Shown here: one piece after another, positions 4,632 to 60,287 of the stretch | Layout of the letters: each line of letters begins with the position of its first letter | Position numbering within the stretch: the stretch's first letter is position 1 | Source of the DNA: an uncultured Acidobacteriota bacterium | GTDB lineage: Bacteria > Acidobacteriota > Vicinamibacteria > Vicinamibacterales > UBA2999 | Assembly (NCBI GenBank): GCA_963807105.1 | Contig: CAWEAM010000003.1 | Location: forward strand, 1,280,529-1,344,528 | Direction of reading: 5' to 3' | DNA: 64,000 nt | The notes under the pieces: model-generated | What the model was told of the DNA's origin: nothing | What the model saw: only the letters and a program-made list of their open reading frames with translations | The model's database searches: none | Made by a program: the position numbers and the translations under genes

Positions 4632-6563
4632 ATGATCCCAGGCCGCCTTCGTCTCCGATTCGTCGTCGCCGCGGGCCTGCTGGTGCTCACCACCGTCACG
4701 GCTAGCGTCTGGACGTTCTTCTCGTTGTCCCGCCTCAGTGGCATCGTAACCGACACGGTGCAACAAAGTGAGTCAGTCACCGCGGTGACGTCACGGCTCT
4801 CGGGTGCGCTGGAGCGCGAGGACGATGCCGTACTCCTGATCCTCGCAGGCGATGTCCGCGGCACGCAGGTGTTGGCCACCGAGCGAAGTGTCGTCGACAA
4901 AGGCCTGGCCGAGCTCTTCGGCGTGTTGGAGCCGGACGATGAGCGCGAGCTCGCAACCCCGCTGCAAGCGGAGCTCAGAGCGTATCGGCAGGCGGCTGAT
5001 GGCGTCATCGCGATGTCGCGTGAGCGTGAAGCCCTGGTGCAGTACCACCAGACGGCGAACCCGGTGCTCCGCCGGGTCGTCGCACGCACGACAGCGATCC
5101 GAGATCGGCATTTTGAGTTGGCGCGAGAGGCCGTCGCTGGCGCCCGCGATGAGGCTGCCGGGGCCCGTCGCGCGGTCCTGGCGATCACGCTGGCAGCGCT
5201 CGGGATAGCGGTGGCGGTGGCGTGGCATCTGACGCGGACCGTCGTCGGACCGGTGCGACGTCTCACGCGGGGCGCCAATGCCATCCGCGACGGAGACTTC
5301 TCCCAGCGCATCGATGTCGCGTCGCGCGACGAGCTCGGCGAGCTCGCTGCGGCCTTCAATCAGATGGCGGAGGATTTATTAGAGTTCCGGCGAACGAACA
5401 TCGGTGAAGTCGTACGCGCCAAGAACACGTTGGAGGCGACGCTGGAAGCGCTGCCGGACGCCGTGGTCCTGCTCGATTCCGCCGGGCGGATTCAGTCCAT
5501 GAATCGGGCTGCGGTCGAGGCTCTCGCCTCGGCCGGTGTGAATGAACCCCGGTCTCTCGACGACCTCGTGCTCGATGGCTTGGACCTGCACGCCATGGCG
5601 AGAGCGATCGCGACGGGCACTGGTGCCGTTCCACCAGCGGACCTCACGCGCACGATTCGCGTCGAACAGGATGGTTCGGTGACGCGGTTGCTGCCGCGTG
5701 TCGTGCCGGTGCCAGCGCTGACCCCACAACTGGGAGGCGCCGTGCTCTTGCTGTACGACGTGACCGACCTGGTTCGGCTCGACGAAATGCGGTCGGAGTT
5801 GGTCGCGGTGGCATCCCACGAACTGCAGACGCCGTTGACGACGCTGAGAATGACCTTGCTGATGTTGCAGGAGGCGTCGGCCGTGCTTCCCGAACGACAA
5901 CGAGAGCTCGTCGCCACGTCGCTCATCGGCGTTGAACAGCTGACGGAAACGGTTCATGAGTTCCTGGATTTGACGCGGGTCGAAGCCGGTGAGCTTCGCC
6001 TGAATCTCGAGCCTGTTCACGTCTCGGCGGTGATGGCAGACGCAGTTCGCCGGATTGAGGGGCAGGCGAAGGCGCAGGGCATCTCTCTCTTGGCTCATCT
6101 CAACACAGACCTTGCGCCCATCTCGGCTGACCCTCTTCGTTTGCGCGCGGTCTTCGCCAATATCCTCTCGAATGCGCTCAAATACACGCCCGAAGGAGGG
6201 CGCGTGACCGTCGAAAGTCAGCGCCGCGCCGCGTCTCATCCGGGCGGATCGCCGATGGTGTCCATCAGCGTCGTCGATACGGGTCCGGGCATCCCCGTCG
6301 CGTTCCGGTCGCGAGTGTTCGACAAGTTTTTCCGACTCGAACACCATCAGAGCGACCAACACCAAGGGGCGCGAGGAGCCGGAATTGGTCTCTACATGTG
6401 CCGGCAGATCGTCGAGCTGCATGGCGGCGAAATCTCCTGCAGTACGGGTCCCGATGGGCAGGGCACACGCATTGCGATAAGCCTGCCGGCCAGGAGCGAA
6501 GGCGTCGCGCCCGTCCTGACGGGCTCCACAACGTACGCTACTCCGCAGGAGAGCACGAGATGA
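4632..6563 (+). CDS. sensor histidine kinase (TM sensor, HAMP, PAS-like, HisKA, HATPase_c)
   Basis: Starts 6 nt after the regulator stop. HAMP (DELGELAAAFNQMAEDL), H-box ASHELQTPLT, N-box NALKYTPEGG, G1 DTGPGI, G2 GAGIGLYMC. Confidence 0.9.
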   Translation: MIPGRLRLRFVVAAGLLVLTTVTASVWTFFSLSRLSGIVTDTVQQSESVTAVTSRLSGALEREDDAVLLILAGDVRGTQVLATERSVVDKGLAELFGVLEPDDERELATPLQAELRAYRQAADGVIAMSREREALVQYHQTANPVLRRVVARTTAIRDRHFELAREAVAGARDEAAGARRAVLAITLAALGIAVAVAWHLTRTVVGPVRRLTRGANAIRDGDFSQRIDVASRDELGELAAAFNQMAEDLLEFRRTNIGEVVRAKNTLEATLEALPDAVVLLDSAGRIQSMNRAAVEALASAGVNEPRSLDDLVLDGLDLHAMARAIATGTGAVPPADLTRTIRVEQDGSVTRLLPRVVPVPALTPQLGGAVLLLYDVTDLVRLDEMRSELVAVASHELQTPLTTLRMTLLMLQEASAVLPERQRELVATSLIGVEQLTETVHEFLDLTRVEAGELRLNLEPVHVSAVMADAVRRIEGQAKAQGISLLAHLNTDLAPISADPLRLRAVFANILSNALKYTPEGGRVTVESQRRAASHPGGSPMVSISVVDTGPGIPVAFRSRVFDKFFRLEHHQSDQHQGARGAGIGLYMCRQIVELHGGEISCSTGPDGQGTRIAISLPARSEGVAPVLTGSTTYATPQESTR

Positions 6564-9195: not shown

Positions 9196-11451
9196 ATGAG
9201 CACTTTCTTTTGGTTCGCGCGAGCGATCCTGTGCGCCACCGCTATGGTGCTGGTTGCGCTCGCCGGGACGGCCGCGGCTCAGGGTGCGCCCCTCACCGGG
9301 AAGGTCACTCGAGACAACGGGGACGTGATGGTCGGTGCGATCGTTGCGATCGAAGAGCTACGACTCGAGACTCGAACGGGCGCGGATGGCACTTACCGAT
9401 TCGAAACCATTCCGCCCGGCCGCTATCACGTGTCGGTCAGGGCCGAGGGCTATACCACTCCGCGCACCGAGGTCAACGTCACGCCGCAAGGTGCGACGCT
9501 CGATCTCGTCGTCGAGCTCGACCTGCACTTCCGCGAAGTCGTGTCCGTGAGTCCCGCGGCTCGTCCTCAATTCGAGTCGTACCAGCCGACGACGGTGCTC
9601 GCCGGACAGGAGCTGCAGAGGGAAGTCGATTCGACCCTCGGCGCGACGCTCAAGGACGCACCCGGCGTCGCGATGCGATCGCTGGGAACGGGCCCGGCGC
9701 GACCGGTCATTCGCGGCCTCGACGGTGATCGCATTGCCATTCTCACCGACGGGCAGCGCACCGGCGACCTCTCGAGCCAGTCGGCGGATCACGGCGTGAC
9801 GATCAATCCTGCCTCCGCGACTCGCATCGAGGTGGTGCGAGGTCCCGCAACGTTGTTGTATGGCGCCAATGCGATCGGCGGTCTCGTCAACGTGCTCACC
9901 GAGCAGATCCCGACCGCCCCGGTCAACGGAGCCCAGGGCAAATTCACGTTCGACGGCGGAACGAATGCCCGTGAGGCGGCCGGCGCCGGCGAGGTTCACC
10001 TCGGCAACGGCAATATGGCGTTGACGATCGGCGGCAACGGACGACGGACCAGCGAATTCCATGTCGGTGATCTCGACGAAGGTGAAGACGACGAAGTGCC
10101 AAACTCCAGACTGCGCCAGCGCGGGTTCAACGTCGGGGCATCGCGCACGACGAGTCGCTCGTACTTCGGCGGTAGTTACGCGTTCGACGATACAAAGTAC
10201 GGCATCCCGTTCGTCGAAGAGGGCCAGACGCAACTTACGCCGGAGCGACACGCGTTTACGATCCGGGCTGGCGGTCAGGGTCTCGATTCCGCCATTTCCT
10301 CGTATCGCGCCACCTTTGGTGTGAAGCGCTACAACCATGACGAGCTCGACGGCGAGACGGTCGCCACGCACTTCGACAACGACACGGAAGAAGCCGAGGT
10401 GCTGCTCGGCCATGGAGCGATTCGAAAGCTATCCGGCAGCTTCGGCGGGTCGTTTCTGAATCGCCGGTTCAACACCGAGGGCGAGGAGGTGCTTTCGCCA
10501 CCGGTCGATCAGCGCGGTGGAGCATTTTTCGCTTACGAGGAACTGATCTGGCCGCACGCAACACTGCAATTCGGCGGCCGCTACGATTACACACGCTTCA
10601 CGAATGAGGGAGGACTACCGGAGCGCAGCTTCAACGAATTCTCGGCGTCAGCCGGTTTGCTGCTTCGTCCGCAGGCCGCGAATGACAAGTTTGCGATCGC
10701 GCTCAACCTGGCCCGGGCCGCGCGTAACCCGGCGCTCGAGGAGCTCTACTACTTCGGGATTCACCCTGGGAACTTCGCCTTCGAGATCGGGAATCCGGAT
10801 ATCGATTCGGAGCATTCGCTGGGGTTCGATATCGGCGTGCGTGGCCGATCGAGCCGCTTCAACGGCGAGCTGTCGTTCTTCCGAAATGATATCTCGGATT
10901 TCATTTTCCGCAATCCGCTCAGCGAAGAAGAAGTGCTGCTCCGCACACCAGAATTCAACGAGCGCTTCGGCACCTCCGGCCCGATCGATCCCGAAGACTT
11001 TCCGGTGATCGAGTATATCGCCGCCGACAGCGTCTTGTATGGCATCGAAGCGCATGCGGATGTGAACGTCGTCGAATCCGTGGTGGTCGAGTTCGGTTAC
11101 GACATGGTCCGCGGCTCTTTGCAGGACACCGATGAACCATTGCCTCGCATTCCGCCGTTTCGCGTGATGGGCGGCGTGACCTATCGGAGAAATGGGTTGC
11201 AGATCGGTGGCAACGTGACTTACGCGGGGGACCAGAATCGCGTGTTTCGCGAGGAATCACCGACTGAGGATTACACACTGCTGAAATTGTTCGGCTCGTA
11301 CTCCTTTCTCGCCGGGGGCGTCCTGAACACGTTCACGGTCCGGCTGGACAACGCGACGAATGAGCTGTACTTCAACCATCTCAATTACCTGAAGGACATC
11401 CTTCCCGAAATGGGCCGCAACCTGAAGGTGATCTACACCGTCGGTTTCTAG
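9196..11451 (+). CDS. TonB-dependent receptor with CarboxypepD_reg-like N-terminal domain
   Basis: ATG 9196 preceded by aggag. Signal peptide ..VALAGTAAAQG. GADGTYRFETIPPGRYHVSVRAEGY. Plug motifs DRIAILTDGQRTGD and RIEVVRGPATLLYGANAIGGLVNV. Long beta-barrel ending NLKVIYTVGF (terminal aromatic). Confidence 0.9.
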   Translation: MSTFFWFARAILCATAMVLVALAGTAAAQGAPLTGKVTRDNGDVMVGAIVAIEELRLETRTGADGTYRFETIPPGRYHVSVRAEGYTTPRTEVNVTPQGATLDLVVELDLHFREVVSVSPAARPQFESYQPTTVLAGQELQREVDSTLGATLKDAPGVAMRSLGTGPARPVIRGLDGDRIAILTDGQRTGDLSSQSADHGVTINPASATRIEVVRGPATLLYGANAIGGLVNVLTEQIPTAPVNGAQGKFTFDGGTNAREAAGAGEVHLGNGNMALTIGGNGRRTSEFHVGDLDEGEDDEVPNSRLRQRGFNVGASRTTSRSYFGGSYAFDDTKYGIPFVEEGQTQLTPERHAFTIRAGGQGLDSAISSYRATFGVKRYNHDELDGETVATHFDNDTEEAEVLLGHGAIRKLSGSFGGSFLNRRFNTEGEEVLSPPVDQRGGAFFAYEELIWPHATLQFGGRYDYTRFTNEGGLPERSFNEFSASAGLLLRPQAANDKFAIALNLARAARNPALEELYYFGIHPGNFAFEIGNPDIDSEHSLGFDIGVRGRSSRFNGELSFFRNDISDFIFRNPLSEEEVLLRTPEFNERFGTSGPIDPEDFPVIEYIAADSVLYGIEAHADVNVVESVVVEFGYDMVRGSLQDTDEPLPRIPPFRVMGGVTYRRNGLQIGGNVTYAGDQNRVFREESPTEDYTLLKLFGSYSFLAGGVLNTFTVRLDNATNELYFNHLNYLKDILPEMGRNLKVIYTVGF

Positions 11452-49625: not shown

Positions 49626-50731
49626 GTGGCAGGAGCACAACGCATCATTCGATATGCGGTCGTCGGTCTCGGGCACATCGCACAGGTCGCCGTGATTCCG
49701 GCGTTCGCCCATGCCCGGCGCAACTCTCGATTGGTCGCGATTGTCAGTGGGGATCGTACGAAGCGCCGGGAGATTGTCCAGCGGTATCGCCTCGAACATG
49801 CGTTCGCCTACGAGGATTTCGACGAGTGCCTTCGAGCGGTGGATGCGGTGTATCTCGCACTGCCGAACTCCATGCATGCGGAGTACACCATTCGGGCGGC
49901 GCGAGCGGGAGTTCACGTGCTGTGCGAAAAACCCATGGCGGTGACGGCGGGCGAGTGTCGGCAGATGATCGACGCCTGTCGGAGGGGAAACGTCAAGCTG
50001 ATGATCGCGTACCGCTTGCACTTCGAAGCGATCAACCTCGCGGCGATCGACCTTGCGCGTAGTGGACGGCTCGGTGAGCTCAAGTTCTTCAATTCATCGT
50101 TCTCGATGAGGGTCAGGCGCGGAGACATTCGAACCAAGCGTGCATATGGTGGAGGCACGCTCTACGACATCGGCGTCTATTGCATCAACGCGGCACGTAA
50201 CCTGTTTCGGGCAGAGCCGACGCAGGTCTCCGCCATTTCAATCAATAGTGGTGTCGCGACGTTGTCAGAGATTGACGAAACCACCGCCGCCACGCTCCGC
50301 TTTGGGGATGACCGCATCGCCACGTTCGTCACGAGCTTCAATGCAGCCGATGTCGCATCCTATCGCATCGTTGGGACGAAAGGCGATCTCCACGCGGACC
50401 CGGCCTACGAGTACGCCGAGGGACTGGATACGCGGTGACAATCGATGGCCGAACCACTCGAAAGAAGATCGGCAAGCGCGATCAATTCGCTCCGCAGCTG
50501 ATCTACTTCTCGGATTGCATCATCAACGACCGACAGCCAGAACCGTCGGGCGAGGAAGGGATGCAAGACGTCAGAATCGTGGAGGCGCTCTATCAGTCAG
50601 CGAAAACCGAAAAACCGGTTTCACTGCGGCGATTCGCAAAGCGCCAGCGTCCAACCGGGCGGCAACGCATTTCACGCCCCGGTGCCAAGAAGCCAACGCT
50701 GATCAAGGTGCAGAGCGCAAGTCAAGATTGA
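49626..50731 (+). CDS. Gfo/Idh/MocA-family oxidoreductase, frame broken near 50428
   Basis: GTG 49626 after ggagga. IRYAVVGLGHIAQVAVIPAF (Rossmann fold), VLCEKPMAV. ..PAYEYAEGL continues in the -1 frame as (D/E)YAVTIDGRTTRKKIGKRDQFAPQLIYFSDCIINDRQPEPSGEEGMQDVRIVEALYQSA (ORF 50435..50731). Confidence 0.8.
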
Positions 50732-51189
50732 AGGCCGGGGCAGTTGCGGTTCGGACAAAGCCATCTCCGTCGAACGGCGTTCTCTCCGTCCTGCAAGGAT
50801 ACGGGGAACCGCGTCCACAACGCGGCCTCCTTGGTGGGGCGCCATCCTACACCCGTCAGCCGCCGGCTTTGTTGTCGGTAATTGGCCTCTGGCGCGGGTC
50901 GTCCCTTCCGGCCTCCCTGTCCGGCCTCCCCGCCATCGAGTCGTCCAGGCCGACAAGTCCTTGCCGGCCGGCTTCGGGTCGATGGAGGCCGGTGGCAGGG
51001 CCTCGCCGTCGGGCCGCGTGCCCGGTTCCCGAGGAGGGGCGCCCATGCCCGGCGTTTCGCCGTGTTTCGGTGTCGCCGGGGCCTCTTTCTCTCCGGCGTG
51101 CGGGGCCGGGCTGTTCGTCTGGTTGTCCATGCGTCAAGTCGCGCAAGGAAGGTGCCGCGCCGCCGGACGCCTGCAGAAAATCGCGTTTC

Positions 51190-51471
51190 CCGCGGCCGCG
51201 ACGAGCCGTCCTCCAGCCCGCCTCGTCCGAACTCCCGAAACCGCCCGACCCATTTGGCCACCGTGCGCACGCTCACGCCGTAGCCGTCCGCCACCGCTTG
51301 ATAGCTCCATCGATCGTGCAGGACCCGGCGTACCAGCGCGAGCCGGGAAACAGGCGTGGTCTTCGCATTACGATGAAGCTTCATCCGGGGCCTCCTCTGA
51401 TCGGAACGGCTGTGTCGCAACACCATTCTTTTCAGAGCGCTCCGGATGAACAACGTGTTTAGCAAAGACAC
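51190..51471 (-). mobile_element. IS481-family transposase remnant (5' end plus N-terminal HTH only)
   Basis: ATG 51384 with ggagg upstream. MKLHRNAKTTPVSRLALVRRVLHDRWSYQAVADGYGVSVRTVAKWVGRFREFGRGGLEDGSSRP is the IS481-type N-terminal HTH. Downstream translations in all frames lack a DDE domain. The AT-richer 51385-51471 could be the element end. Confidence 0.6.
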
Positions 51472-51735
51472 CTAGTCGCTGTCGAATCGAATGCCGAGTA
51501 GGCGACCCGTATCGCCCGCGGCATCGGTCAGCCGCAATCTCACAAACGACTCGAAATCGAACTCCTCCTGAAATTCCTCGTGCGGAACCATATCTGAGTT
51601 CATCGTGCAGATGTACCGGAAGCCCAGCGCTCCGACTTCGGCTGCCGCAAGCTGTAAGGCTAGTGCCCGTTGTCGAACCAGGACACAGCCGGCCGACTTG
51701 AACAGCGCCGGCCGGCTGCGTGCATCGATGGGCGC
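51472..51735 (-). pseudogene. C-terminal fragment of a DUF2326-like (SMC/ABC-type, defence-island-associated) ATPase
   Basis: ..LFKSAGCVLVRQRALALQLAAAEVGALGFRYICTMNSDMVPHEEFQEEFDFESFVRLRLTDAAGDTGRLLGIRFDSD-stop resembles, from memory, the C-terminal end ..LF.GVDERQ.A.AL.LA....LGFQYI.T.NSD..P.. of that family. No N-terminal part. It is read through from the oxidoreductase only because of the frame break at ~51771. Confidence 0.35.
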
Positions 51736-51742
51736 GTGTCGC

Positions 51743-52659
51743 TCACGGACGAACGCGGATGATCGTCTTCCCTTGATCCGCGCGGTCGGGTTGAATGCGG
51801 CGACGGCGTCGTCGAGGGTCGAGACCTTGCCGATGTTCGTCCGCAGTCGTCCGTCCCGCACCCGTTGGACGATCTCACTCAGTTGGGCACGATCGGACTC
51901 GACAACGAAGTCGACCGCTAGGCCGTCGGCGGGCCGCGCCTCGGGCGGCCCGACGATGGACACCAGTGTTCCTCCGGCTCGAATCAGGCCTGCGGACCGC
52001 TTCCCGATGTCGCCGCCGATGACATCGAACACCAGATCGACTCCGCCGACGTCTTCGAGGACGTCGTTCTCGAGATCGACGAACTCCTTCGCGCCGAAGT
52101 CGAGCACCGTCTGACGGTCGGCACCGCGTCCGGTGCCGATGACGTAGGCGCCGGCCTCTCGTGCGAGTTGCGTCACCATCGACCCGACGGCGCCGGCCGC
52201 GCCGTGCACGAGGATGCTCTGCCCCGCCTGAAGGCGACCGTGCTCGAACAGTCCCTGCCACGCGGTCAGGCCCGAGATCGGCAGGCTCGCGCCCACCGTG
52301 AAGTCGACGTCGCCCGGCAGCGGCGCGAGGTTGCGTGCCTCGACGGCCGCGTACTCCGCCAGGGTGCCGTCGCGAGTCCAGTCCGTGAGGCCGAACACCC
52401 GCTGTCCCACCGACAGCCCCTTCGTGCCATAGCCGAGGGCGGTGACCACTCCGGCCAGCTCGTGCCCGGGAATTGACGGTGTTCGGTCACGGTCGAGGCG
52501 ATCGGTCCAGGTCGAGGGCCACGCCAGCTCAGTCGGGACGAACCCCGACGCATGAACCCGAACGACGACGTCTTTGATCGCTGCCTGCGGCTCGGGCCGC
52601 TCCACCAGCGTCATCCCGGCCGTTCCCGCAGCCTGGTCCGTCACCACGATCGCCTTCAC
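51743..52659 (-). CDS. NADPH:quinone oxidoreductase (MDR/zeta-crystallin family), frame broken near 51770-51773
   Basis: GTG 52659 after gggagg. VKAIVVTDQ.., PGHELAGVV, ILVHGAAGAVGSMVTQLA. Adding one base in aa[ggg]aag restores the canonical end ..RIKGKTIIRVRP-stop at 51743. As assembled, the ORF runs on to 51472. Confidence 0.85.
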
Positions 52660-52880
52660 CGTACGCCTCCCTGTGTCGAGTCCTCGCCTGCACTGCTGCC
52701 GATCCACCCCGTGTCCCAGGACGGGTTATCGGACAGAAACGGATCGATCAGGATCTTGGCCCGGAACTCGTCTCGCAGGAAATTGGATTTGGGTGCCGGG
52801 TTCTTCGCGCAGCATGTGAGCGTTGCGATACCGCTTTCGCGGTCGCTTGGCGCGCTGACGTTAGTCGCACCGCTTCTCAA
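52656..52880 (-). CDS. 74-aa hypothetical ORF coupled to the oxidoreductase start
   Basis: Stop TGA overlaps the oxidoreductase GTG (GTGA at 52656-52659). Unbiased composition (..CAKNPAPKSNFLRDEFRAKILIDPFLSDNPSWDTGWIG..). No family recognised. Confidence 0.3.
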   Translation of the reverse strand: MRSGATNVSAPSDRESGIATLTCCAKNPAPKSNFLRDEFRAKILIDPFLSDNPSWDTGWIGSSAGEDSTQGGVR

Positions 52881-52933
52881 CAGGTAGGCCGCGTCCCGTT
52901 GTCAGAAGAGACGACAGTTTGTAGATTGGACAT

Positions 52934-53371
52934 ATGGCGCTTAAACGGATGGACAACGTAGGAATCGTCGTCGATGACCTTGCGGCGACGATTGAGTTCT
53001 TTCGCGAGCTCGGCCTTGAGCTCGAAGGGCGAGCCACAATAGAAGGAGAATGGGCCGGACGTGTCACTGGACTGCGCGATCAACGCGTCGAGATCGCGAT
53101 GATGCGCACGCCGGACGGCCACGGCCGGCTCGAGCTCTCCCGCTTTCTCACGCCGGCCACCGTTGCGGATCACCGAAACGCCCCGGTGAACGCTCTAGGC
53201 TACCTGCGCGTCATGTTCGCCGTGGACGACATCGACGAGACGCTCGAGAGGATCCGTAAGCGCGGAGCCCAGCTCGTAGGCGAGGTAGTCCGGTATAAAG
53301 ACGCGTATCGGCTCTGCTACATCCGCGGGCCTGAAGGGCTTCTCATCGGACTCGCCCAAGAACTCAGCTGA
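52934..53371 (+). CDS. VOC/glyoxalase-family protein
   Basis: MALKRMDNVGIVVDDLAATIEFFRELGLELEG..VEIAMMRTPDGHGRLELSRF..LRVMFAVDDIDETLERIRKRGAQLVGEVV. Confidence 0.85.
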   Translation: MALKRMDNVGIVVDDLAATIEFFRELGLELEGRATIEGEWAGRVTGLRDQRVEIAMMRTPDGHGRLELSRFLTPATVADHRNAPVNALGYLRVMFAVDDIDETLERIRKRGAQLVGEVVRYKDAYRLCYIRGPEGLLIGLAQELS

Positions 53372-53550
53372 GCCCCGGCACCACAGCGGGGTGGGCAGTC
53401 GTGCCGCAAGCCGTGGCCGATCTGATTGCAAGGCAGCCAACAGCGTCGCTCTCGCGACGCGTTAGCAGACGTGGCCCAGGTCGAGGGGCCGTGAACAGTC
53501 ACATGGGAGCGCTCGCCCTTAGGCTGCACGGATAAGCCAGTTGCGGAAAT

Positions 53551-53569
53551 CGTCCCTAACACCCAGCCA
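53551..53569. repeat. 19-nt direct repeat, copy 1
   Basis: cgtccctaacacccagcca is identical to 55883..55901. The flanks are also similar (gcggaaat vs gcgcgaattc). Confidence 0.8.
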
Positions 53570-53716
53570 CACTTCTTCAAGGCTTTGAATCGAAGGCACT
53601 TACCCTTCCTATGATGATTCGGCTGTCCTCCGAGTCATGAAGATAGAAGGTGCGTTCAATTGCGCCGAACCCATCTCGTGTCAGCGTTTACCGCCGCCCG
53701 GTTTTGGTGATCGCGA

Positions 53717-53737
53717 GTTCGAATCCCAGGCGGGTCT
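53717..53737 (+). other. tRNA 3'-end-like fragment (T-loop to acceptor), not a functional tRNA
   Basis: GTTCGAATCCCAGGCGGGTCT has the canonical GTTCGAATC T-loop followed by stem and acceptor-length sequence. The 5' side (gcgag) cannot pair with cccag, and there is no CCA and no cloverleaf. Confidence 0.25.
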
Positions 53738-53863
53738 GACCCAGGCGCGTCATGCGCACGCTATGCCACGATCGCTCGTGCAACTGGATGCTGACCGTAA
53801 CAGCCCATGGTGAAAGTCAGACACGCCCTGCTCCCAGCGCGTGCCGACACGATCGACAGCCGC

Positions 53864-54349
53864 TCAGACCAAGGCAGTCCACGTGCGAATGGTGTCGTGA
53901 TGCTCCGCCCAGGCAGACCACGCACTCTGGGCCCACGCGTGCACCTTCTCGCGATGTTCGTCAGCTGAGGTGGCAACCTTGACGTCAACGACGGTGAGTT
54001 CCCCAAGCGAGCGAGGCGGCGTGAGCCACCCAAAGGGAATCCTGCCCTCCACTGCCGCCTTTAGGACTTGGTCTGCGTAGCTGTAAGGCGCGTGCTTCTC
54101 CAGGACCACGCACAGACTCATCAGGTGACCGCAAACTGACTGGATGGCGACTGGTGAGGGTCTCCCCGGATGCTGAACGGCATATGTATCCGCCGTAAAG
54201 CGTTGGACGTCTCGGAGGCCCGGATCGCTGAACTGGCGCGCGAGGATTTCACCGTACACGTGCCAGCAGCCGGGCGATGACTCCATGTACGGGTGCGTAG
54301 GTCCGCTCGTGTCCGGCACCAAGGCGCCGCAACTGAAACATTTAGTCAG
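53864..54349 (-). CDS. DUF5946-family protein, probable non-canonical (CTG) or lost start
   Basis: ..KCFSCGALVPDTSGPTHPYMESSPGCWHVYGEILARQFSDP..FTADTYAVQHPGRPSPVAIQSVCGHLMSLCVVLE..HAWAQSAWSAWAEHHDTIRTW matches the family. The conserved CxxC lies upstream of the first ATG/GTG/TTG (54322). The only plausible initiator in frame is CTG 54349. Confidence 0.7.
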   Translation of the reverse strand: MTKCFSCGALVPDTSGPTHPYMESSPGCWHVYGEILARQFSDPGLRDVQRFTADTYAVQHPGRPSPVAIQSVCGHLMSLCVVLEKHAPYSYADQVLKAAVEGRIPFGWLTPPRSLGELTVVDVKVATSADEHREKVHAWAQSAWSAWAEHHDTIRTWTALV

Positions 54350-54437
54350 ATCGATGACTATGTCCCCCTGAATGTCTACCGACGTCTGGTGTGCAGCCGC
54401 TGCGGCTCATGATCGAATCGCCATGGCGCGCGCCAGT

Positions 54438-55505
54438 CTATTTCGCATCGAACTGCTTGCCTCGGAAGAACGGAGGATCGACGTTTTGAAACCTGAACGG
54501 CAACGACTGGTCCTGAAACAGCCTTGGGCCTGACTGAAGTTGGTAATGCAAGTGTGGTCCGAATGCGTCGCCCGAGTTCCCCAACCGTCCAACTACCTGG
54601 CCCGTGAGGACCCGATCCCCGGCTTTGACGGTGACAGACCCCGGTTGCAGGTGCATCATGACGCTGTACTCGGAGTTGCCATGGTCGATGATCGCGCAAT
54701 TGCCGGCATACGCCATAACCGGGTCACGGAGCGGAAGGTACCAACTATTGACGTCAGGCTGCTCTCCCGGACGCGGGTTGGTGGGTACGTCATTGCGGGC
54801 GTAGATCACCGTTCCAGCCGCGGGCGCGAGGATCTCGCGGTCCCAGCCCGCATCCGATGCATTCTCGTTGGCATCGTTTAGTTGAGATGCGAAGTTAGAA
54901 TCCAGGCCGCGCATGTCTACGGCAAAAGCATTCCAAACGCCGCCGTGGCCGCCGTTCGTGATCCAGTCCTGCCCAACAACGCCCTTGCCACGAAAGGGAA
55001 GGGTGAGCGCTGTCTTCTGTTGGTAGTATCGAATAGGAATCCTCAACGTCTGCTCTGCCCGACGGCCCTTCACATCTGCGACTGTTAGCCGGACAACTGC
55101 GGAGTCAATCGCCAATGCTTGGGGATGGCGAAAGTAAAAACGAACGTCAAATGCTTCGGGCAGCGTAAACGCTCGCGTCGGCGACGCGAGTGGGGTGTTC
55201 GGTTCGATCTTGTAGCTTGTCCGCTTGATCTGCGCCAGCATTTCCGTCGCCCAATCCTGCGTCTCGACGATTGATCCGGCACTGAACAGTTCCACGCGGG
55301 CGGATATCGGGGTCAGCTCGCAATCCGTCGAACAAATCACCGCAGTGTTGAACACGAATGACGACGTTCTAGCGCCTCCTGGATCGTCGACTTTGTACAC
55401 AGTTGCCGGAACGACCTGTAGATGGAAGTCGGGCTGACTGGCCTGTGAAGGTGCGACAGCAGCTGAGGACGCGAACACAACCAAAAGCACCAGACCGCGA
55501 TTCAT
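54438..55505 (-). CDS. secreted M23-family metallopeptidase
   Basis: ATG 55505. Signal peptide MNRGLVLLVVFASSAAVAPSQA. C-terminal IIDHGNSEYSVMMHLQPGSVTVKAGDRVLTGQVVGRLGNSGDAFGPHLHYQL (HxxxD/HxH-type M23 core). Confidence 0.85.
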   Translation of the reverse strand: MNRGLVLLVVFASSAAVAPSQASQPDFHLQVVPATVYKVDDPGGARTSSFVFNTAVICSTDCELTPISARVELFSAGSIVETQDWATEMLAQIKRTSYKIEPNTPLASPTRAFTLPEAFDVRFYFRHPQALAIDSAVVRLTVADVKGRRAEQTLRIPIRYYQQKTALTLPFRGKGVVGQDWITNGGHGGVWNAFAVDMRGLDSNFASQLNDANENASDAGWDREILAPAAGTVIYARNDVPTNPRPGEQPDVNSWYLPLRDPVMAYAGNCAIIDHGNSEYSVMMHLQPGSVTVKAGDRVLTGQVVGRLGNSGDAFGPHLHYQLQSGPRLFQDQSLPFRFQNVDPPFFRGKQFDAK

Positions 55506-55832
55506 GTCAGCGCAACTCCTTGTGGTGCCAGACGCTGTTCTGGCCTCCGCATTCCTTCGTAAGCGATCCGATGTTGACACCGGTACTCGGAGCGTCTGCG
55601 GTGTGTGCAGGGCAGCGTCGGCGTAGCCGAGGGCCTGTTCGTAGACAATGTGCCCCTTCCGAGCGACGAGCGCATTGCCGTTGAAGATCCCTCTGGTGTG
55701 CGAGCGACGCATCAGTTGGTCGGTCCTGTCGACGTCAGGAAGCCGCAGCGCGAGCACCGACGCCGTCGTCAGGATTGCGGTGAGGCCCATCGAGGCCCAA
55801 ACGGAGATCGCCGTGCGCGGTGGGGTCCGCAT
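55506..55832 (-). pseudogene. 5' fragment of a beta-lactamase/PBP-type serine hydrolase
   Basis: The N-terminal extension of ORF 54438..55832 reads signal-like ..ISVWASMGLTAILTTASVLA, then IFNGNALVARKGHIVYEQALGYADAA (typical family N-terminus). The S-x-x-K motif (NIGSLTKE) appears at ~55555-55566, but in another frame. The fragment ends at the M23 start codon. Confidence 0.5.
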
Positions 55833-55882
55833 GCCCAGCTTAGACGGATCGGCGGAAACCGAGGTTTGCTCGGCGCGAATTC

Positions 55883-55901
55883 CGTCCCTAACACCCAGCC
55901 A
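55883..55901. repeat. 19-nt direct repeat, copy 2
   Basis: cgtccctaacacccagcca is identical to 53551..53569. Confidence 0.8.
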
Positions 55902-55970
55902 AGCTCAACGCAAGACACACCCGGCCCTGCTTGTATGAACGCAAGTGCGGGGAGAGACCTTTCAGGCCCA

Positions 55971-58608
55971 TTAATCGCTGCGGAGCGTTTCCATGGGATC
56001 GACAGAAGCGGCGCGGCGAGCAGGAACGACGCTCGCAAGGATCGCCCCTGCAGCGAGGGCCGCACCTGAGAGTGCATACGTGAGCGGATCCAAAGCCGTC
56101 ACACCATAGAGCAGCGACGAGATCCAGCGCGAAAGAATAGCTGAGGAGACGAGTCCCAGAATGCCCCCGAGCGACGTGAGAAGTAGACCTTGTCGAACGA
56201 AGAGGGCGCGCACCGCGCCAGGTTGCGCACCCAGCGCCAGACGGATGCCGACTTCGTGCCGCCGTCTAGCCACCGCGTAGGCAAGTACTCCGTAGACGCC
56301 AACGACGGCAAGCGCCAAGGCCATCGCCGCGGCGATGCCGATGAGCGTGACGGTGAACGAGGTCTGCGCCATGGACCGCCGGTAGGCATCTTCGAGCGTG
56401 CGAACGTCCGCCAGAGGCACACTCGCGTTGACCGCGTGAACGGCCGCTGCCACTTCCCTTAGAAACGCCGGGTTGCCCGCGCGGCTGCTTCGAATCGCCA
56501 CCGTCACCGCGCGTCGTACCGTGGTTGAACCGTTGGCTGCGGTCTCGACTCCAGCGCGGGCGTAGACGGTCGCAGGGGCAGGTTGGTGGAGGCCATCAGC
56601 ATGGATGTTCTCCACAACTCCAACGACCTCGGTCCACGGGCTGTCCCGTGCGATCCGAATCCGTTTCCCAAGCGCTTGGCGCGGCTCACCCCAGCTTTCT
56701 CGAGCCATGTTCTCCGAGACGATGGCGAGGCGGCGTTGATCGAACACATCGTCCCAGGTGAAGTCTCGGCCAGCGAGCAGGTGGGAGCCTTGAGCCGCAA
56801 ACAACCCCGGCGAGGCGTGCCGATACCTCCGGTTCGGAGGCATCCGGTCCGGCTCGGTCACGCCCTCGACCGCGACGACCACGCCATTACGGTTGTTGTC
56901 CAAAGGCACCGCGCTGGCGAAGCCAACTGCGGCGACTCCAGGTATTGCCGCAAGTCTGTCCAGCATGTCTTTCTGCAAACGAATCACCCGTTCGTGTTCT
57001 CGAGCCAGAACCTGGGGGAGCGAAATGCGGACCATCTGGATCTGGTCCGGTCGAGTAAAGCCAGGCTTGACGCTCTGAATAGCGAGCAGCGTCCGGACCA
57101 TGAGCCCCGACGCCACCAGCAGCACCAAGGCCATGGCGACTTGGCCAACAACCAGGACGCGTTGCCCCCGGAGTTGCTCCCTTGCTGGAGTTGCTCCGCG
57201 GGCGCTCTCGATGCGGCGTGGCACGCGACGCCCGACAACGGCAACCGTCCCGAACAGTAGACTGGTCCCGAGCGCGCAGAGCAGCGCGAAGGCGACCACC
57301 GCCGGCCCGAGCGCAATCTCGTTCAGCCTGGGTAGGTCGGGCGGACCGATGGCGACGAGGAGACGGACTCCGAAGTAGGCAAGGCCGAGGCCGAGCGTGC
57401 CGCCCATGAGTCCCAGGGCGAGGCTCTCGGCGAGCTGCTCAAACGCGATCCTGCCCCAACCAGCGCCGAGCGCAGCGCGTATGGCGAACTCCTGCTGGCG
57501 TGCCTGGGCCCGAACCAGGACGAGATTCGCCACGTTTGCGCAGACGAGCAACATCAGCAGGCCCAGAGCGCCCATCAGGACGCGGAGAGCCATAGCGACA
57601 CTTCCGACCACATCGTTCTTCAAAGGACGAGCGTTGGGCGTCACTGCCAATTCCTCCAGCAGCTTGCCTGCGCCCTCGTTCTGAGCCCAATGCCTCCATA
57701 CGCGAGCGATGTCCTCGTTGGCCTGGGTCACACCGAAGCCTGGTTTCAGCCTACCGATGCCGTTGTAACTGAACTCGTCGGCCCGGTTTGTGGCCAGGCG
57801 CTGCGCGAGAAAGAGGTCAGGCGACAGGTCCAGGAAGCGAAAATCCCGCGGCATCACGCCGACGATCTGGTGCGGAACGAAATCGATCACTACAGTACGG
57901 CCGAGAATCTCCCGGTCGCCTCCGAATCTTCGTTGCCAGTACCCGTGGCTGAGGATCGCCGTTCGAGCGCCGCCCGGTGAATCGTCTTCCGGCGAGAACC
58001 AGCGGCCCAGCGAGGCAGGTACCCGAACGCAGGGAAGTACACCGTGCGTCACCGTCACCGTCGCCACCTGTTCGGCTTCGCCGGCTCCTGTCACGGTGGC
58101 GGCGCCGGAGCTCCACACGCCAAGGTGCTCGAAGGCCCGGCAATCGTCGCGGCAGGCCGCGTACATGCCGGGCGAGAGGGCCGCGTCCTCGTAGACCTGT
58201 CCGCTGATCGTCAGCCGGTTGTAGATCCCCACCAGCGCGTCGGCTTGAGGATAGGGCAAGGGCTGAATCAATACTCCGTGTACCACGCTGAAGATCGCGG
58301 TATTCGCGCCGATACCGAGCGACAACGAGAGCACGACCGTCAGAACGAATCCGGGATGGGTGCGGATCAGGCGCACGGTCTGACGTGCAGTGCGCAGCGT
58401 GTTTTCGGCGAACGTGACGGTGTTCATTCTGTAGATCTCCTCGCGGATCAGTGTCATGTTGCCCAACTTTCTCCGCGCAGCGGCGCGTGCCCCTGAGGAT
58501 TCATTCCGCGTTCGACATACTCCTCGGCCGTGACATCCACGAGAACTCCAGCTCCTCCTGCTGTTCGGCATCAGCGGCCTCCCGGCGCAGGAAGCGTTTC
58601 CAGTTCAT
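55971..58608 (-). CDS. ADOP-type duplicated MacB/FtsX-like permease (copy 2); N-terminal leader split over three frames
   Basis: Permease body intact from MTLIREEIYRMNTVTFAENTLRTARQTVRLIRTHPGFVLTVVLSLSLGIGANTAIFS to ..ASVDPMETLRSD. The leader reads MNWKRFLRREAADAEQQEELEF (frame a, ATG 58608), VDVTAEEYVERGMNPQG (frame b), then ARAAARRKLGNMTLIREE (frame c). ATG 58457 could still express the permease. Confidence 0.8.
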
Positions 58609-58950
58609 CCGCGATGCTCCGTGGCGGGCTTCATGATGCGGCCGATGGCCCGCACCAGTTGGTCCCAGCGGGACGAGTGATCTGCCAGCTGCTTTTTGTC
58701 TGCAGGCGTGAGGCGGTACTACCTCGCCTTGCGGTTGTTCTCGGAGGTTCCCCAGAAGGAGGCGATCCATCCACGGTTCTGAAGCCGGTGCAGGGCCGGA
58801 TAAAGGGAGCCGTGCTCGACCACGCTGTTCCGTACACACCTTGGTTGACTCGGCTTCTCGGGCCGTCGTGCTGTTGAGTCAACTTCGAGATGCGCGCCGA
58901 TGGGCAAGAATAAGGGAATCTCACCGAGCGCGTAAGGCCGCGGCGGCCCA
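58605..58950 (-). pseudogene. PadR-family regulator (Acidobacteria type) with in-frame TAG and degenerate N-terminus
   Basis: ..[37 protein letters not shown](58719-58721)-YRLTPADKKQLADHSSRWDQLVRAIGRIMK..-TGA. The TAG sits where homologues have an aromatic residue, Tyr or Phe (..AK(Y/F)YRLT). The TGA overlaps the ADOP leader ATG (ATGA). The winged-helix N-terminal part (LGEIPLFLPIGAHLEV..) is poorly conserved and no start codon is evident. Confidence 0.7.
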
Positions 58951-59012
58951 ACAACCGTTTGCAGCCGTCGGCGGCATGCTCGACAATGTGCCGACCGAGT
59001 CGAAGAGCCACG

Positions 59013-60287
59013 ATGACTACCGCGAACCAACAGGCGACGTCGCGGTGGAACGGTGTCACCAGGTTCTTATTTCGCTTGTGGTCGGTGTACTTTGCCATCG
59101 GCCTGATCCCTTTTACAACGGCGTTTCTCAATGGCCTCGGTTTGTGGGCCCGCATTGTTGACGCGGTCGGCCGCTGGCCGATAACGATGGTCCTGGGATT
59201 GCCGGAGCATTCCGCCGGCCCCCGTGTTCCCGGCACCGACTTCCTGCCCGACTACATCACCCTGTCCGTACTCGCGCTCGTCAGCCTCGTCGTCGCGATA
59301 ACGTGGTCCGTCATCGACCGGCGACGTCAGAGCTATCCCCGTGCGTTCCCCTGGGTCTATACGGCGGTTCGTTTCACCCTGGCGGCCCTCATGTTTTGGT
59401 ACGCCTGGGGCAAGATTCTCGGGGGGCAGTTCGGTCTGGGTGTGGACCTCGTTTACCTTCCTCGACCGGTTGCGGGCCTGACGCCGATGAATCTGCTCTG
59501 GGTCTTCATGGAAGCGTCGCGTCCCTACACAATCTTTACTGGCCTCGTGGAGTTCGCCGGTGGACTGCTGCTGCTGACCCGCCGAACTGCGCTGGCGGGG
59601 GCGCTGCTGAGCGCCGCGGCCTTGGCAAACGTCCTCATGCTCAATCTCGCATACGACGTGAACGTGAAGATTGCCGCGGGCGTGATGCTCGCGATGGCCC
59701 TCTTCCTGCTCGCGCCACATGCGACCCGGTTATTCCAAGTGTTCCTGCTTAACCAGCCGACACACCATGCTCCGGAGCCTCGGCTATTCACGAACGCAAG
59801 GATCGATCGCGTTGCCCGGGTCGTCGGTGCACTGGTCGCGGCGTCGGCGGTCTACTGGGCCTACGGTCAGGCCAAGGTTTTCGCCGACGAGAACGTCGCA
59901 GCGGGCAAGGAGCCGCTTTACGGGGTCTGGCGGGTAGAGGAAACGACGAGGAACGGCGTTGTTGCGGCTCCGCTGCTCACTGACGAAGTATTGTGGCGGC
60001 ACATGATCATTGCTGGAGGCGCGCAGATCGTCTGGATGTCCGATTCTGTGACCGGCTATCGGCTCACGATCGACCACACGGCTGGCACAATCCACTTCCG
60101 GCCACGGCCCCAGTGGCCCGGAACCGAGCCGGGTCGCCCGATGTCGTTTCGCTTCAGCCAGTCCGATCGCGAGCATCTGGAACTACAGGGTTTGAGCGGT
60201 GAAGTCGCAGCGCTGGGCATGCGGCTTCGGCGCGTGGACCTTTCCCGGTCTCCGTTAGTCGATCACCAACACTCGTGGAGATGGTGA
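59013..60287 (+). CDS. polytopic membrane protein with C-terminal soluble domain (DoxX-like?)
   Basis: ATG 59013. About 6 hydrophobic helices (FRLWSVYFAIGLIPF.., YITLSVLALVSLVVAITW, FTLAALMFWYAWGKILGGQF, YTIFTGLVEFAGGLLLLT..). The ~130-aa C-terminal domain reads LYGVWRVEETTRNG... Family guess is weak. Confidence 0.55.
   Translation: MTTANQQATSRWNGVTRFLFRLWSVYFAIGLIPFTTAFLNGLGLWARIVDAVGRWPITMVLGLPEHSAGPRVPGTDFLPDYITLSVLALVSLVVAITWSVIDRRRQSYPRAFPWVYTAVRFTLAALMFWYAWGKILGGQFGLGVDLVYLPRPVAGLTPMNLLWVFMEASRPYTIFTGLVEFAGGLLLLTRRTALAGALLSAAALANVLMLNLAYDVNVKIAAGVMLAMALFLLAPHATRLFQVFLLNQPTHHAPEPRLFTNARIDRVARVVGALVAASAVYWAYGQAKVFADENVAAGKEPLYGVWRVEETTRNGVVAAPLLTDEVLWRHMIIAGGAQIVWMSDSVTGYRLTIDHTAGTIHFRPRPQWPGTEPGRPMSFRFSQSDREHLELQGLSGEVAALGMRLRRVDLSRSPLVDHQHSWRW

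Follow-up and report, generated by a model that had tools for sequence, protein, structure and literature searches.

What do two identical 19-mers mark when they lie 2.3 kb apart on a bacterial chromosome? The question is raised by a stretch of 64,000 nucleotides (nt) from an uncultured Acidobacteriota bacterium of the Vicinamibacteria, which is referred to as the window (the whole stretch that was analysed). The 19-mer CGTCCCTAACACCCAGCCA occurs on its plus strand at 53551-53569 and again at 55883-55901, and the block enclosed by the two copies is bordered by a VOC gene on one side and by an ADOP permease gene (ADOP-2) on the other. The original prediction regarded this block as one integrative element, now devoid of its integrase, whose insertion between the two genes had produced a second copy of a 19-bp host target. 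The analysis presented here favors another reading, to which a probability of about 75% is given. The 19-mers would belong to two consecutive copies of a lineage-wide attachment site (att) unit of Vicinamibacteria, used by tyrosine integrases whose target is the 3' end of tRNA-Gln(CTG) genes, and the apparently clean islet would be a decayed module of an att-site array.

A codon-conserved unit around the 19-mer

The two copies of the 19-mer are exact, as had been reported, and the runner-up exact direct repeats in the window are 16-mers. With up to three mismatches allowed, the window still contains two copies, against 0.03 expected from shuffled sequences. When one genome of each species was scanned (596 Gb), the exact 19-mer was recovered in 103 stretches, about four being expected by chance. 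These stretches, referred to below as loci and designated, like the further contigs compared with them, by L numbers, come from about 87 assemblies, nearly all of them metagenome-assembled genomes (MAGs) of Acidobacteriota/Vicinamibacterales. One match is fortuitous and lies inside a Solirubrobacteraceae gene. Apart from its shortness, nothing speaks for the pair being a chance occurrence, and this explanation is ruled out by the two expectations, in the window and in the genome collection. The original prediction had also stated that a 19-mer found to be a frequent dispersed repeat would count against it, and the scan revealed precisely such a repeat.

Some of the contigs with units belong to MAGs that bear the labels Bifidobacterium, Ramlibacter, cyanobacterium, Acidimicrobiia, Gemmatimonadota, Thermomicrobiales and Thermoleophilia (L011, L045, L077, L067, L018, L062, L033, L054, L059 and L081). 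These are either mis-binned Vicinamibacteria contigs or cases of cross-phylum transfer.

When the copies are aligned, the conservation is one-sided, with an abrupt edge at the CCA end of the 19-mer (TGG on the other strand). Read on the strand opposite to the 19-mer as first written, the unit is TGGCTGGGTGTTAGGGACG GAATTCGCAACTGGCTGGTCACCGCGGCG TGA. It comprises an 8-bp core, TGGCTGGG, followed by codons for WLGVRDGIRNWLVTAA and a stop codon, and the 19-mer is its sharp 5' edge. The unit is present in about 86 species. Because it continues to the left of the 19-mer, over 33 nt in copy 1 (53518-53550) and 8 nt in copy 2 (55875-55882), the flanks of both 19-mers are partly similar, a resemblance that had already been pointed out.

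The conservation of the unit is that of a coding sequence. Its consensus translation is WLGVRD(GI or DF)RN(W/Y/F)L(V/L/I)xAA followed by a stop, and the tail ends in -AA in most copies. In the tail, entropy reaches 1.18-1.66 bits at third codon positions versus 0.46 at second positions, and 41% of the codon differences are synonymous in the tail frame versus 12% and 7% in the other two frames. Leucine codons interchange at both first and third positions, and TGA, TAA and TAG are all in use as stop codons. The tail frame has no in-frame start codon, and a stop codon is located 1-30 codons upstream in most copies. A transfer-messenger RNA-like tag, a leader peptide and an independent micro-open reading frame (micro-ORF) were considered and rejected because of this missing start codon, of the stops just upstream and of an orientation that runs against the CCA end. 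The codon periodicity lies on the other strand, which led to the rejection of an RNA gene terminating in CCA as well.

Other features accompany the unit. A near-perfect 28-bp palindrome, GTCCGAAATTTGTATACAAATTTCGGAC, is present in about 45 of 109 copies, 111-137 nt past the start of the core and often about 60-85 nt beyond the tail. A purine-rich stretch is found directly upstream of the core. The repeats within the unit are direct (TGGCTGG occurs twice), and no symmetric core-binding arms are evident by eye around TGGCTGGG.

Co-oriented arrays, tRNA-Gln genes and integrases

As first written, the 19-mer ends in TCCCTAACACCCAGCCA and the tRNA-Gln(CTG) genes end in TCCCTGCCTCCCAGCCA. Over the last 18 nt, 14 positions are identical, including CCCAGCCA-3', of which the core TGGCTGGG is the complement. 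The 19-mer is in this respect a tRNA-3'-related att sequence. The same families of flanking sequence, among them a hairpin flank, follow both true tRNA-Gln genes and the 19-mer.

The arrangement of the units was established by running a 51-nt unit profile on the window and on the 103 loci, each locus being at most 8 kb long. The profile detected 153 copies, and 34 sequences (33 loci and the window) contain two to four of them. All 49 adjacent pairs are co-oriented, with spacings mostly of 0.6-6.5 kb, and five co-oriented copies follow one another within 24 kb across three contiguous loci of one contig. A tRNA-Gln(CTG) gene is present in 13 of the 103 loci; two more loci carry other tRNAs, one of them a chimera with the 3' half of tRNA-Gln. 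In all 15 tRNA-bearing loci, the units without exception (19/19) share the strand of the tRNA and lie 3' of it. Wherever the start of an array was captured (13/103 loci), it is located at tRNA-Gln. Diverse genes surround and separate the copies (those of kinases, ADOP permeases, hydrolases, metallo-beta-lactamase-fold proteins and regulators), and no gene family constantly beside the unit was found among these neighbors.

A chimeric or rearranged-looking tRNA gene was observed at the head of the L044 array (5158-5231). It is called tRNA-Arg(ccg) by ARAGORN and its 3' half is identical to tRNA-Gln.

A tyrosine integrase gene lies beside a unit in L079, L103, L095, L186 and L187. In L079 and L103, a motif scan for tyrosine recombinases located a PF00589 integrase that is read in the direction of the core and stops shortly before it, and in L095 an integrase fragment runs into a unit. 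On contig L187 the order is integrase, exact 19-mer, tail, stop codon, 60 nt and palindrome. In L186 an HTH_17 (Xis-like) gene precedes the integrase. That the tail might be out of frame with the integrase, as it appears in L079 and L103, was discarded: as other loci show, the offset is due to 1-nt indels in these two assemblies.

A scan of metagenome contigs with these integrases returned 80 loci. For the closest relatives, at least 14 loci among these, a tRNA-Gln(CTG) gene follows the integrase on the opposite strand within about 150-250 nt. One ORF of 413-576 residues, counted from the first start codon, crosses the core TGGCTGGG in 10 of 11 such loci with integrase and tRNA-Gln. This ORF encodes the catalytic domain and a low-complexity extension, passes through the core, continues for about 60 nt antisense into the tRNA gene and ends in DL(E/Q)x-WLGGRDSNPDNVVQSHVSYR. 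A sister integrase clade (L117, L119, L122-L132 and others, all metagenomic) behaves likewise at another tRNA gene: the integrase is followed by tRNA-Glu(CTC), and its ORF runs antisense into the tRNA and ends in WYRYGDSNPGPVAENHVS.

C-terminal tails were counted among the 120 best database homologues of the integrase. Fifty-five of them end in the tail derived from tRNA-Gln (WLGGRDSNPDNVVQSHVSYR), those of the sister clade end in WYRYGDSNPGPVAENHVS, and two intact homologues of 463 residues end in DLDLADWLGVRDGIRNWLVTAA and DLDLENWLGVRDDFHNWLIRAA, which is the tail of the unit. The unit-tailed protein P0029 and the tRNA-tailed protein P0017 are 88% identical over 454 residues and diverge right past WLG; P0029 is equally identical (88%) to the other unit-tailed protein. 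The catalytic motif HxLRH...LGH...Y is intact and located about 100 residues upstream of the exchanged tail. The same integrase family thus carries two alternative C-termini, one encoded by the unit and the other by the antisense strand of the tRNA gene.

The integrase-bearing relatives have the appearance of ordinary small integrative elements and carry DUF932, HTH_17, D5_N/DUF5906 primase and Fic genes, with a Glu/Gln-tRNA synthetase gene on the host side. A scan of viral contigs yielded only two distant integrases (23-26% identity). About 100 nt before the core, the part of the integrase ORF that encodes the C-terminal extension contains a conserved direct repeat, TGTCAAG-N5-TGTCAAG or TTTCAAGATTCTTTCAAGA (for example at about 7100-7140 in L108 and about 2420-2450 in L113), which may be a set of arm-type binding sites.

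Since the integrase reads through the core and ends either in antisense tRNA or in the tail of the unit, the unit can be understood as the core plus the integrase-distal arm of attP, the att site of the element, orphaned at attR. The cycle that this suggests is as follows. The integrase gene runs through TGGCTGGG, which would be its own recombination core. As long as the element is free or in tandem (attP), this gene would end in the 16 codons of the unit (WLGVRDGIRNWLVTAA-stop), followed by the palindromic hairpin. On integration, recombination with the 3' end of tRNA-Gln would join the integrase gene to about 20 antisense-tRNA codons at attL, and the original tail would be left orphaned at the far end of the element, at attR. 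If elements integrated again and again, at the tRNA or at units already in place, and subsequently lost their integrases and underwent internal deletions, the outcome would be co-oriented arrays of units that separate small cargo modules. This attP-arm model would explain the sharp TGG edge, the codon conservation in the absence of an upstream gene, the resemblance to tRNA, the co-orientation and the anchoring at tRNA-Gln.

The exchange of arms can be followed on the other side of the core as well. A left arm of about 70 nt, which follows ADOP genes, is conserved across species and in the window separates the ADOP-2 stop codon from the core, is present in 18 loci (the window and 17 others, including L009, L018, L022, L027 and L188), where it always abuts TGGCTGGG. 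Past the core, it is joined to a unit-type arm in 12 loci, to a tRNA-Gln-type arm in five and to a degenerate one in the last. The integrase arm is likewise seen joined to the tRNA and to the unit. As read from these junctions, arms reassort at the core. Strand exchange probably takes place within the 8 bp, because only TGGCTGGG is common to all the arm combinations.

These data bear on two further explanations. According to the first, the unit is a dispersed non-mobile repeat, akin to repetitive extragenic palindromes (REPs) or miniature inverted-repeat transposable elements (MITEs), or else a regulatory element or an independent micro-ORF, and its pairing in the window is incidental. The unit is indeed short, dispersed and mostly intergenic, many copies have a palindrome and a purine-rich stretch stands just before the core. 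This explanation is nevertheless very unlikely. The lack of an in-frame start and the nearby upstream stops do not fit a micro-ORF, the same 16 residues form the C-terminus of intact integrases, and the units keep a strict orientation in arrays anchored at tRNA-Gln. The features of REPs and MITEs are not found either: the unit lacks terminal inverted repeats and target duplications, its palindrome is located inside it and is not always present, and no transposase is linked to it.

The second takes the arrays for integrons or clusters of attC sites lacking an integron integrase (CALINs), with the unit as the attC site and an IntI-type integrase as its recombinase. The strictly co-oriented sites, the one to three diverse genes between them, the usual absence of a nearby integrase and the core region GTTAGGG, close to the R' consensus GTTRRRY, are what such a system would display. 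It is considered extremely unlikely all the same. The imperfect inverted-repeat architecture (R''/L''-L'/R') is lacking, GTTAGGG having no partner with which to form the hairpin between R'' (RYYYAAC) and R' (GTTRRRY), and the conservation is one-sided and codon-like. Co-orientation of the sites, as in integrons, is observed in all 49 adjacent pairs. The enzyme linked to the arrays is, however, no IntI at their head; it is a classical PF00589 integrase adjoining tRNA genes, and the site is a mimic of the tRNA-Gln 3' end within its ORF. No Rfam family matches the site.

The two copies in the window and the block between them

The features of the window that concern the two copies are listed in Table 1.

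Table 1. Unit copies, neighboring genes and related features in the window
Feature	Position	Strand	Basis
VOC/glyoxalase gene, last gene of the neighboring module that ends with copy 1	52934..53371	+	PF00903
Stretch of 127 nt from the VOC stop codon to the unit tail, missing in the 92%-identical L075	53383..53509		blastn coordinates
Unit copy 1, complete	53518..53569	-	nhmmer profile positions 1-52, 53.4 bits
T-arm-like tRNA-Gln fragment	53705..53727	+ (strand of the 19-mer)	local alignment, 19/22 to tRNA-Gln(CTG) positions 41-61
DUF5946 gene, TTG start, cargo of the module	53864..54322	-	PF19371, E=1.4e-31
Sub-module: beta-lactamase-like stub (55506-55832) and secreted M23 peptidase (54438-55505)	54416..55877	-	blastn, 1463 nt at 98.2% to L188; PF01551
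Unit copy 2, truncated, 27 nt	55875..55901	-	nhmmer profile positions 1-27 only
Conserved left arm of about 70 nt between the ADOP-2 stop codon and the core	55902..55970	-	profile, 18 loci
ADOP-2 permease (MacB_PCD and FtsX), part of the next module, with the 70-nt arm as 3' flank	55971..58571	-	Pfam

In copy 1, the core TGGCTGGG and the remainder of the 19-mer run from 53569 to 53551 and are followed by the codons for DDFRNWLIRAA and a TAA stop at 53518-53520, so that the minus strand reads WLGVRDDFRNWLIRAA* in translation. This copy is 98% identical to that of L053 over 53 nt and 94% identical to that of L075 over 71 nt. Copy 2 retains the core region of the 19-mer and GAATTCGC but has lost the remaining tail together with spacer and palindrome. 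In L188, a full unit with its palindrome (9431-9581) precedes the same downstream sequence, namely the stub and M23 sequence shared with the window, from which it follows that the window lacks 174 nt at copy 2. The deletion junction shows a CGC microhomology. Judged from this alignment, copy 2 was once a full unit and lost these 174 nt by deletion. Both copies in the window are the element-borne arm of an att site and not a host target.

The gene content proposed for the block was largely borne out. The DUF5946 gene is confirmed and lacks a canonical start codon, and the M23 peptidase (PF01551, E=1e-15) has a signal-peptide-like N-terminus in agreement with its annotation as secreted. A stub of 109 residues exists as well, within a single minus-strand ORF (54438-55832) that leads in frame into the peptidase starting at 55505. 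Its assignment to the beta-lactamase family is less secure: in Pfam the stub of the window matches nothing, and the counterpart in L188, 98% identical to it, matches PF00144 only weakly (E=0.0013), under the curated cut-off. The tRNA-3'-end-like fragment is likewise present, in the form of the T-arm-like match, and is probably a relic of an older att site or of a copy of a tRNA 3' end. ARAGORN detected no tRNA or tmRNA gene anywhere in the window, and an Rfam scan of 52800-56400 at E<=5 gave no match. No recombinase or integrase remnant was found in the window by motif scan or tblastn, as had been stated at the outset.

The lower GC content of the block, described as visible in the original prediction, is genuine but marginal. 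The block has 59.8% GC versus 63.3% for the window, 5.5% of the sliding windows of equal length are as low or lower, and its tetranucleotide distance is within the top 7%. The compositional contrast is therefore real but weak.

Comparison with related loci indicates that the parts of the block have separate histories. Only the 1.46-kb sub-module is common to the window and L188, which is unrelated to the window beyond it on both sides. L189, in which four co-oriented units are spread over 21 kb, has nothing but the M23 gene in common with the window (95.6%). The DUF5946 gene is not part of the blastn homology with L188 or L189. L075 has kept the VOC gene and copy 1 (92-94%) and then carries a GFO/IDH/MocA oxidoreductase gene in place of the block, its similarity to the window stopping about 11 nt or less past the 19-mer. 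In the comparisons with both L188 and L075, the breakpoints lie within about 10 nt of the core. On these comparisons, the block is a mosaic and not one element. The segment 53570-55901 would then be one decayed module, with a patchwork of cargo and a unit of its own (copy 2) from which tail and palindrome have disappeared. Given that copy 2 is crippled, the module of the window is probably no longer mobile. In view of this decay and mosaicism, annotating the 2.3-kb block as a single mobile element is to be avoided.

The insertion of a single element between the VOC and ADOP genes accordingly becomes quite unlikely. It accounts for two exact direct repeats 2.3 kb apart, for the slightly lower GC content between them and for the tRNA-like fragment inside the block. 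Against this, the 19-mer together with 32 more bases forms an element-type unit that occurs in about 86 species and several times per genome, copy 2 derives from a full unit by deletion, the portion of the block that is shared with L188 lies there in another context, and in L075 the VOC gene and copy 1 are followed by a gene other than ADOP. The initial att-site interpretation holds insofar as the repeats are tRNA-3'-related att sequences of tyrosine-integrase elements; the single insertion with a duplicated target does not.

Observations were also made on genes further out in the window. Upstream of the VOC gene, the ORF of a zinc-dependent alcohol dehydrogenase (ADH; 51472-52707, minus strand) runs in frame into a C-terminal DUF2326 fragment, and the N-terminal fragment of an IS481-family transposase (50722-51471) adjoins the ADH/DUF2326 ORF. 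In L052, whose ADH gene is 93% identical at the nucleotide level, an att unit is located on the 3' side of ADH, where the window has the DUF2326 and IS481 fragments. A third unit may therefore have been lost in the window. On the other side, at 58501-59236, the PadR match covers only profile positions 29-61 of 75, and the typical N-terminal leader of ADOP proteins (MNWKRFLRREAADAEQQEELEF) is in another frame than the main ADOP-2 ORF. These frameshifts reflect either pseudogenes or indel errors of a long-read assembly.

Weight of the reading and comparison with known systems

Several points weigh against the reading of the 19-mers as units of an att-site array. An integrase of this family is found beside a unit in only about five of the 104 unit-bearing loci, which implies that most modules are integrase-less, and two of these integrases, those of L079 and L103, carry 1-nt frameshifts. 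In L190, L191 and L194, where long flanks of the integrase-tRNA junction were searched for attR, the 10 kb upstream of the integrase contain no unit. No complete element, with the integrase-tRNA junction (attL) at one end and the unit (attR) at the other, was captured among the loci, nor was a corresponding empty site or circular form, and no empty site in which VOC adjoins ADOP was found in the relatives that were compared. The window has neither an integrase, nor a tRNA-Gln gene, nor an intact second unit, so that its history was rebuilt from other genomes. The arrays probably arose by serial integration or by mobilization in trans; serial integration with decay, trans-mobilization and other rearrangements are not distinguished by the data.

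The permease genes invite a broader proposal. With att sites on either side, PadR-ADOP permease modules may be able to travel, and this could have contributed to the expansion of the 'duplicated orphan permeases'. In its widest form, the proposal is one of integron-like gene capture by a classical tRNA-targeting integrase. The 3' end of tRNA-Gln would be the primary site and the 51-nt unit the cassette-borne site, and integrase-less modules, including the PadR-ADOP modules with their 70-nt arm, would be cut out and reinserted in trans by recombination at the 8-bp core. Through the swap of its tail, ...AA (possibly a protease tag) in the free or tandem form and ...VSYR in the integrated one, the integrase would register which state it is in. 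This scheme is tentative and its truth rather doubtful; if it were correct, the capture could explain the expansion of these permeases in Acidobacteria. More generally, the arrays offer a testable route for the spread of accessory genes, possibly ADOP permeases among them, in an abundant soil lineage, and the orphan codon-conserved tails can be used as tags for islet boundaries in poorly studied soil Acidobacteria.

Of the known systems, the integrative elements and islands that target tRNA genes, with their tandem accretion and their integrase-less cis-mobilizable elements (CIMEs), are similar in many respects. They share a tyrosine integrase acting at a tRNA 3' end, tRNA-like att sites, direct repeats bounding the modules, arrays that grow from the tRNA gene and many modules devoid of integrase, and the integrase-bearing relatives described above possess their typical genes (Xis-like HTH_17, D5_N/DUF5906 primase, DUF932 and Fic). 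In contrast with these islands, the repeated site is here a diverged arm and not a copy of the tRNA end, only the 8-bp core being shared (14/18 positions overall). It also encodes an alternative C-terminus of the integrase, the modules measure only 0.6-6.5 kb and the unit has been kept across about 86 species.

Integron arrays and CALINs resemble the present arrays by their co-oriented sites between single diverse genes and by an integrase that is usually not nearby, and differ from them in site architecture, integrase type and anchoring at tRNA. Co-oriented arrays of tiny integrase-less modules nonetheless blur the line between genomic islands and integrons.

In the mycobacteriophages BPs and Brujita, immunity depends on integration, and C-terminal tags send the proteins Rep and Int to proteolysis (PMC3694055). 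As in the integrases studied here, attP lies within a coding sequence and the free and integrated forms of the protein differ at the C-terminus. By analogy, and as a conjecture, the -AA end of the unit tail might act as a C-terminal degradation tag. The two systems differ in that attP is in the repressor gene of these phages and in the integrase gene here, where no repressor/cro switch was seen. The integrase sits upstream of the tail, and the BPs-like order with the integrase downstream was not found in the loci.

A parallel for a core inside an integrase ORF is provided by the 'suicidal' integrases of Archaea of the Sulfolobus spindle-shaped virus (SSV) type, whose attP is inside the int ORF (PMC8371274; PMC7253208). 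In both cases, integration alters the gene and leaves a piece encoding the C-terminus, Int(C) in the archaeal elements, at the other end of the element. The present integrases belong to Bacteria and to PF00589 and not PF16795, and the last 16 codons alone, after WLG, are exchanged. As these codons are well past the catalytic tyrosine, the enzyme is not split, unlike its SSV-type counterparts. According to a review, integrases disrupting the gene by which they are encoded are known only in Archaea, and the att site inside the integrase gene has until now been described as an archaeal specialty (PMC8371274). The Vicinamibacteria elements would extend it to a bacterial integrase family whose reading frame crosses its own core and in which integration would swap the C-terminus of the enzyme.

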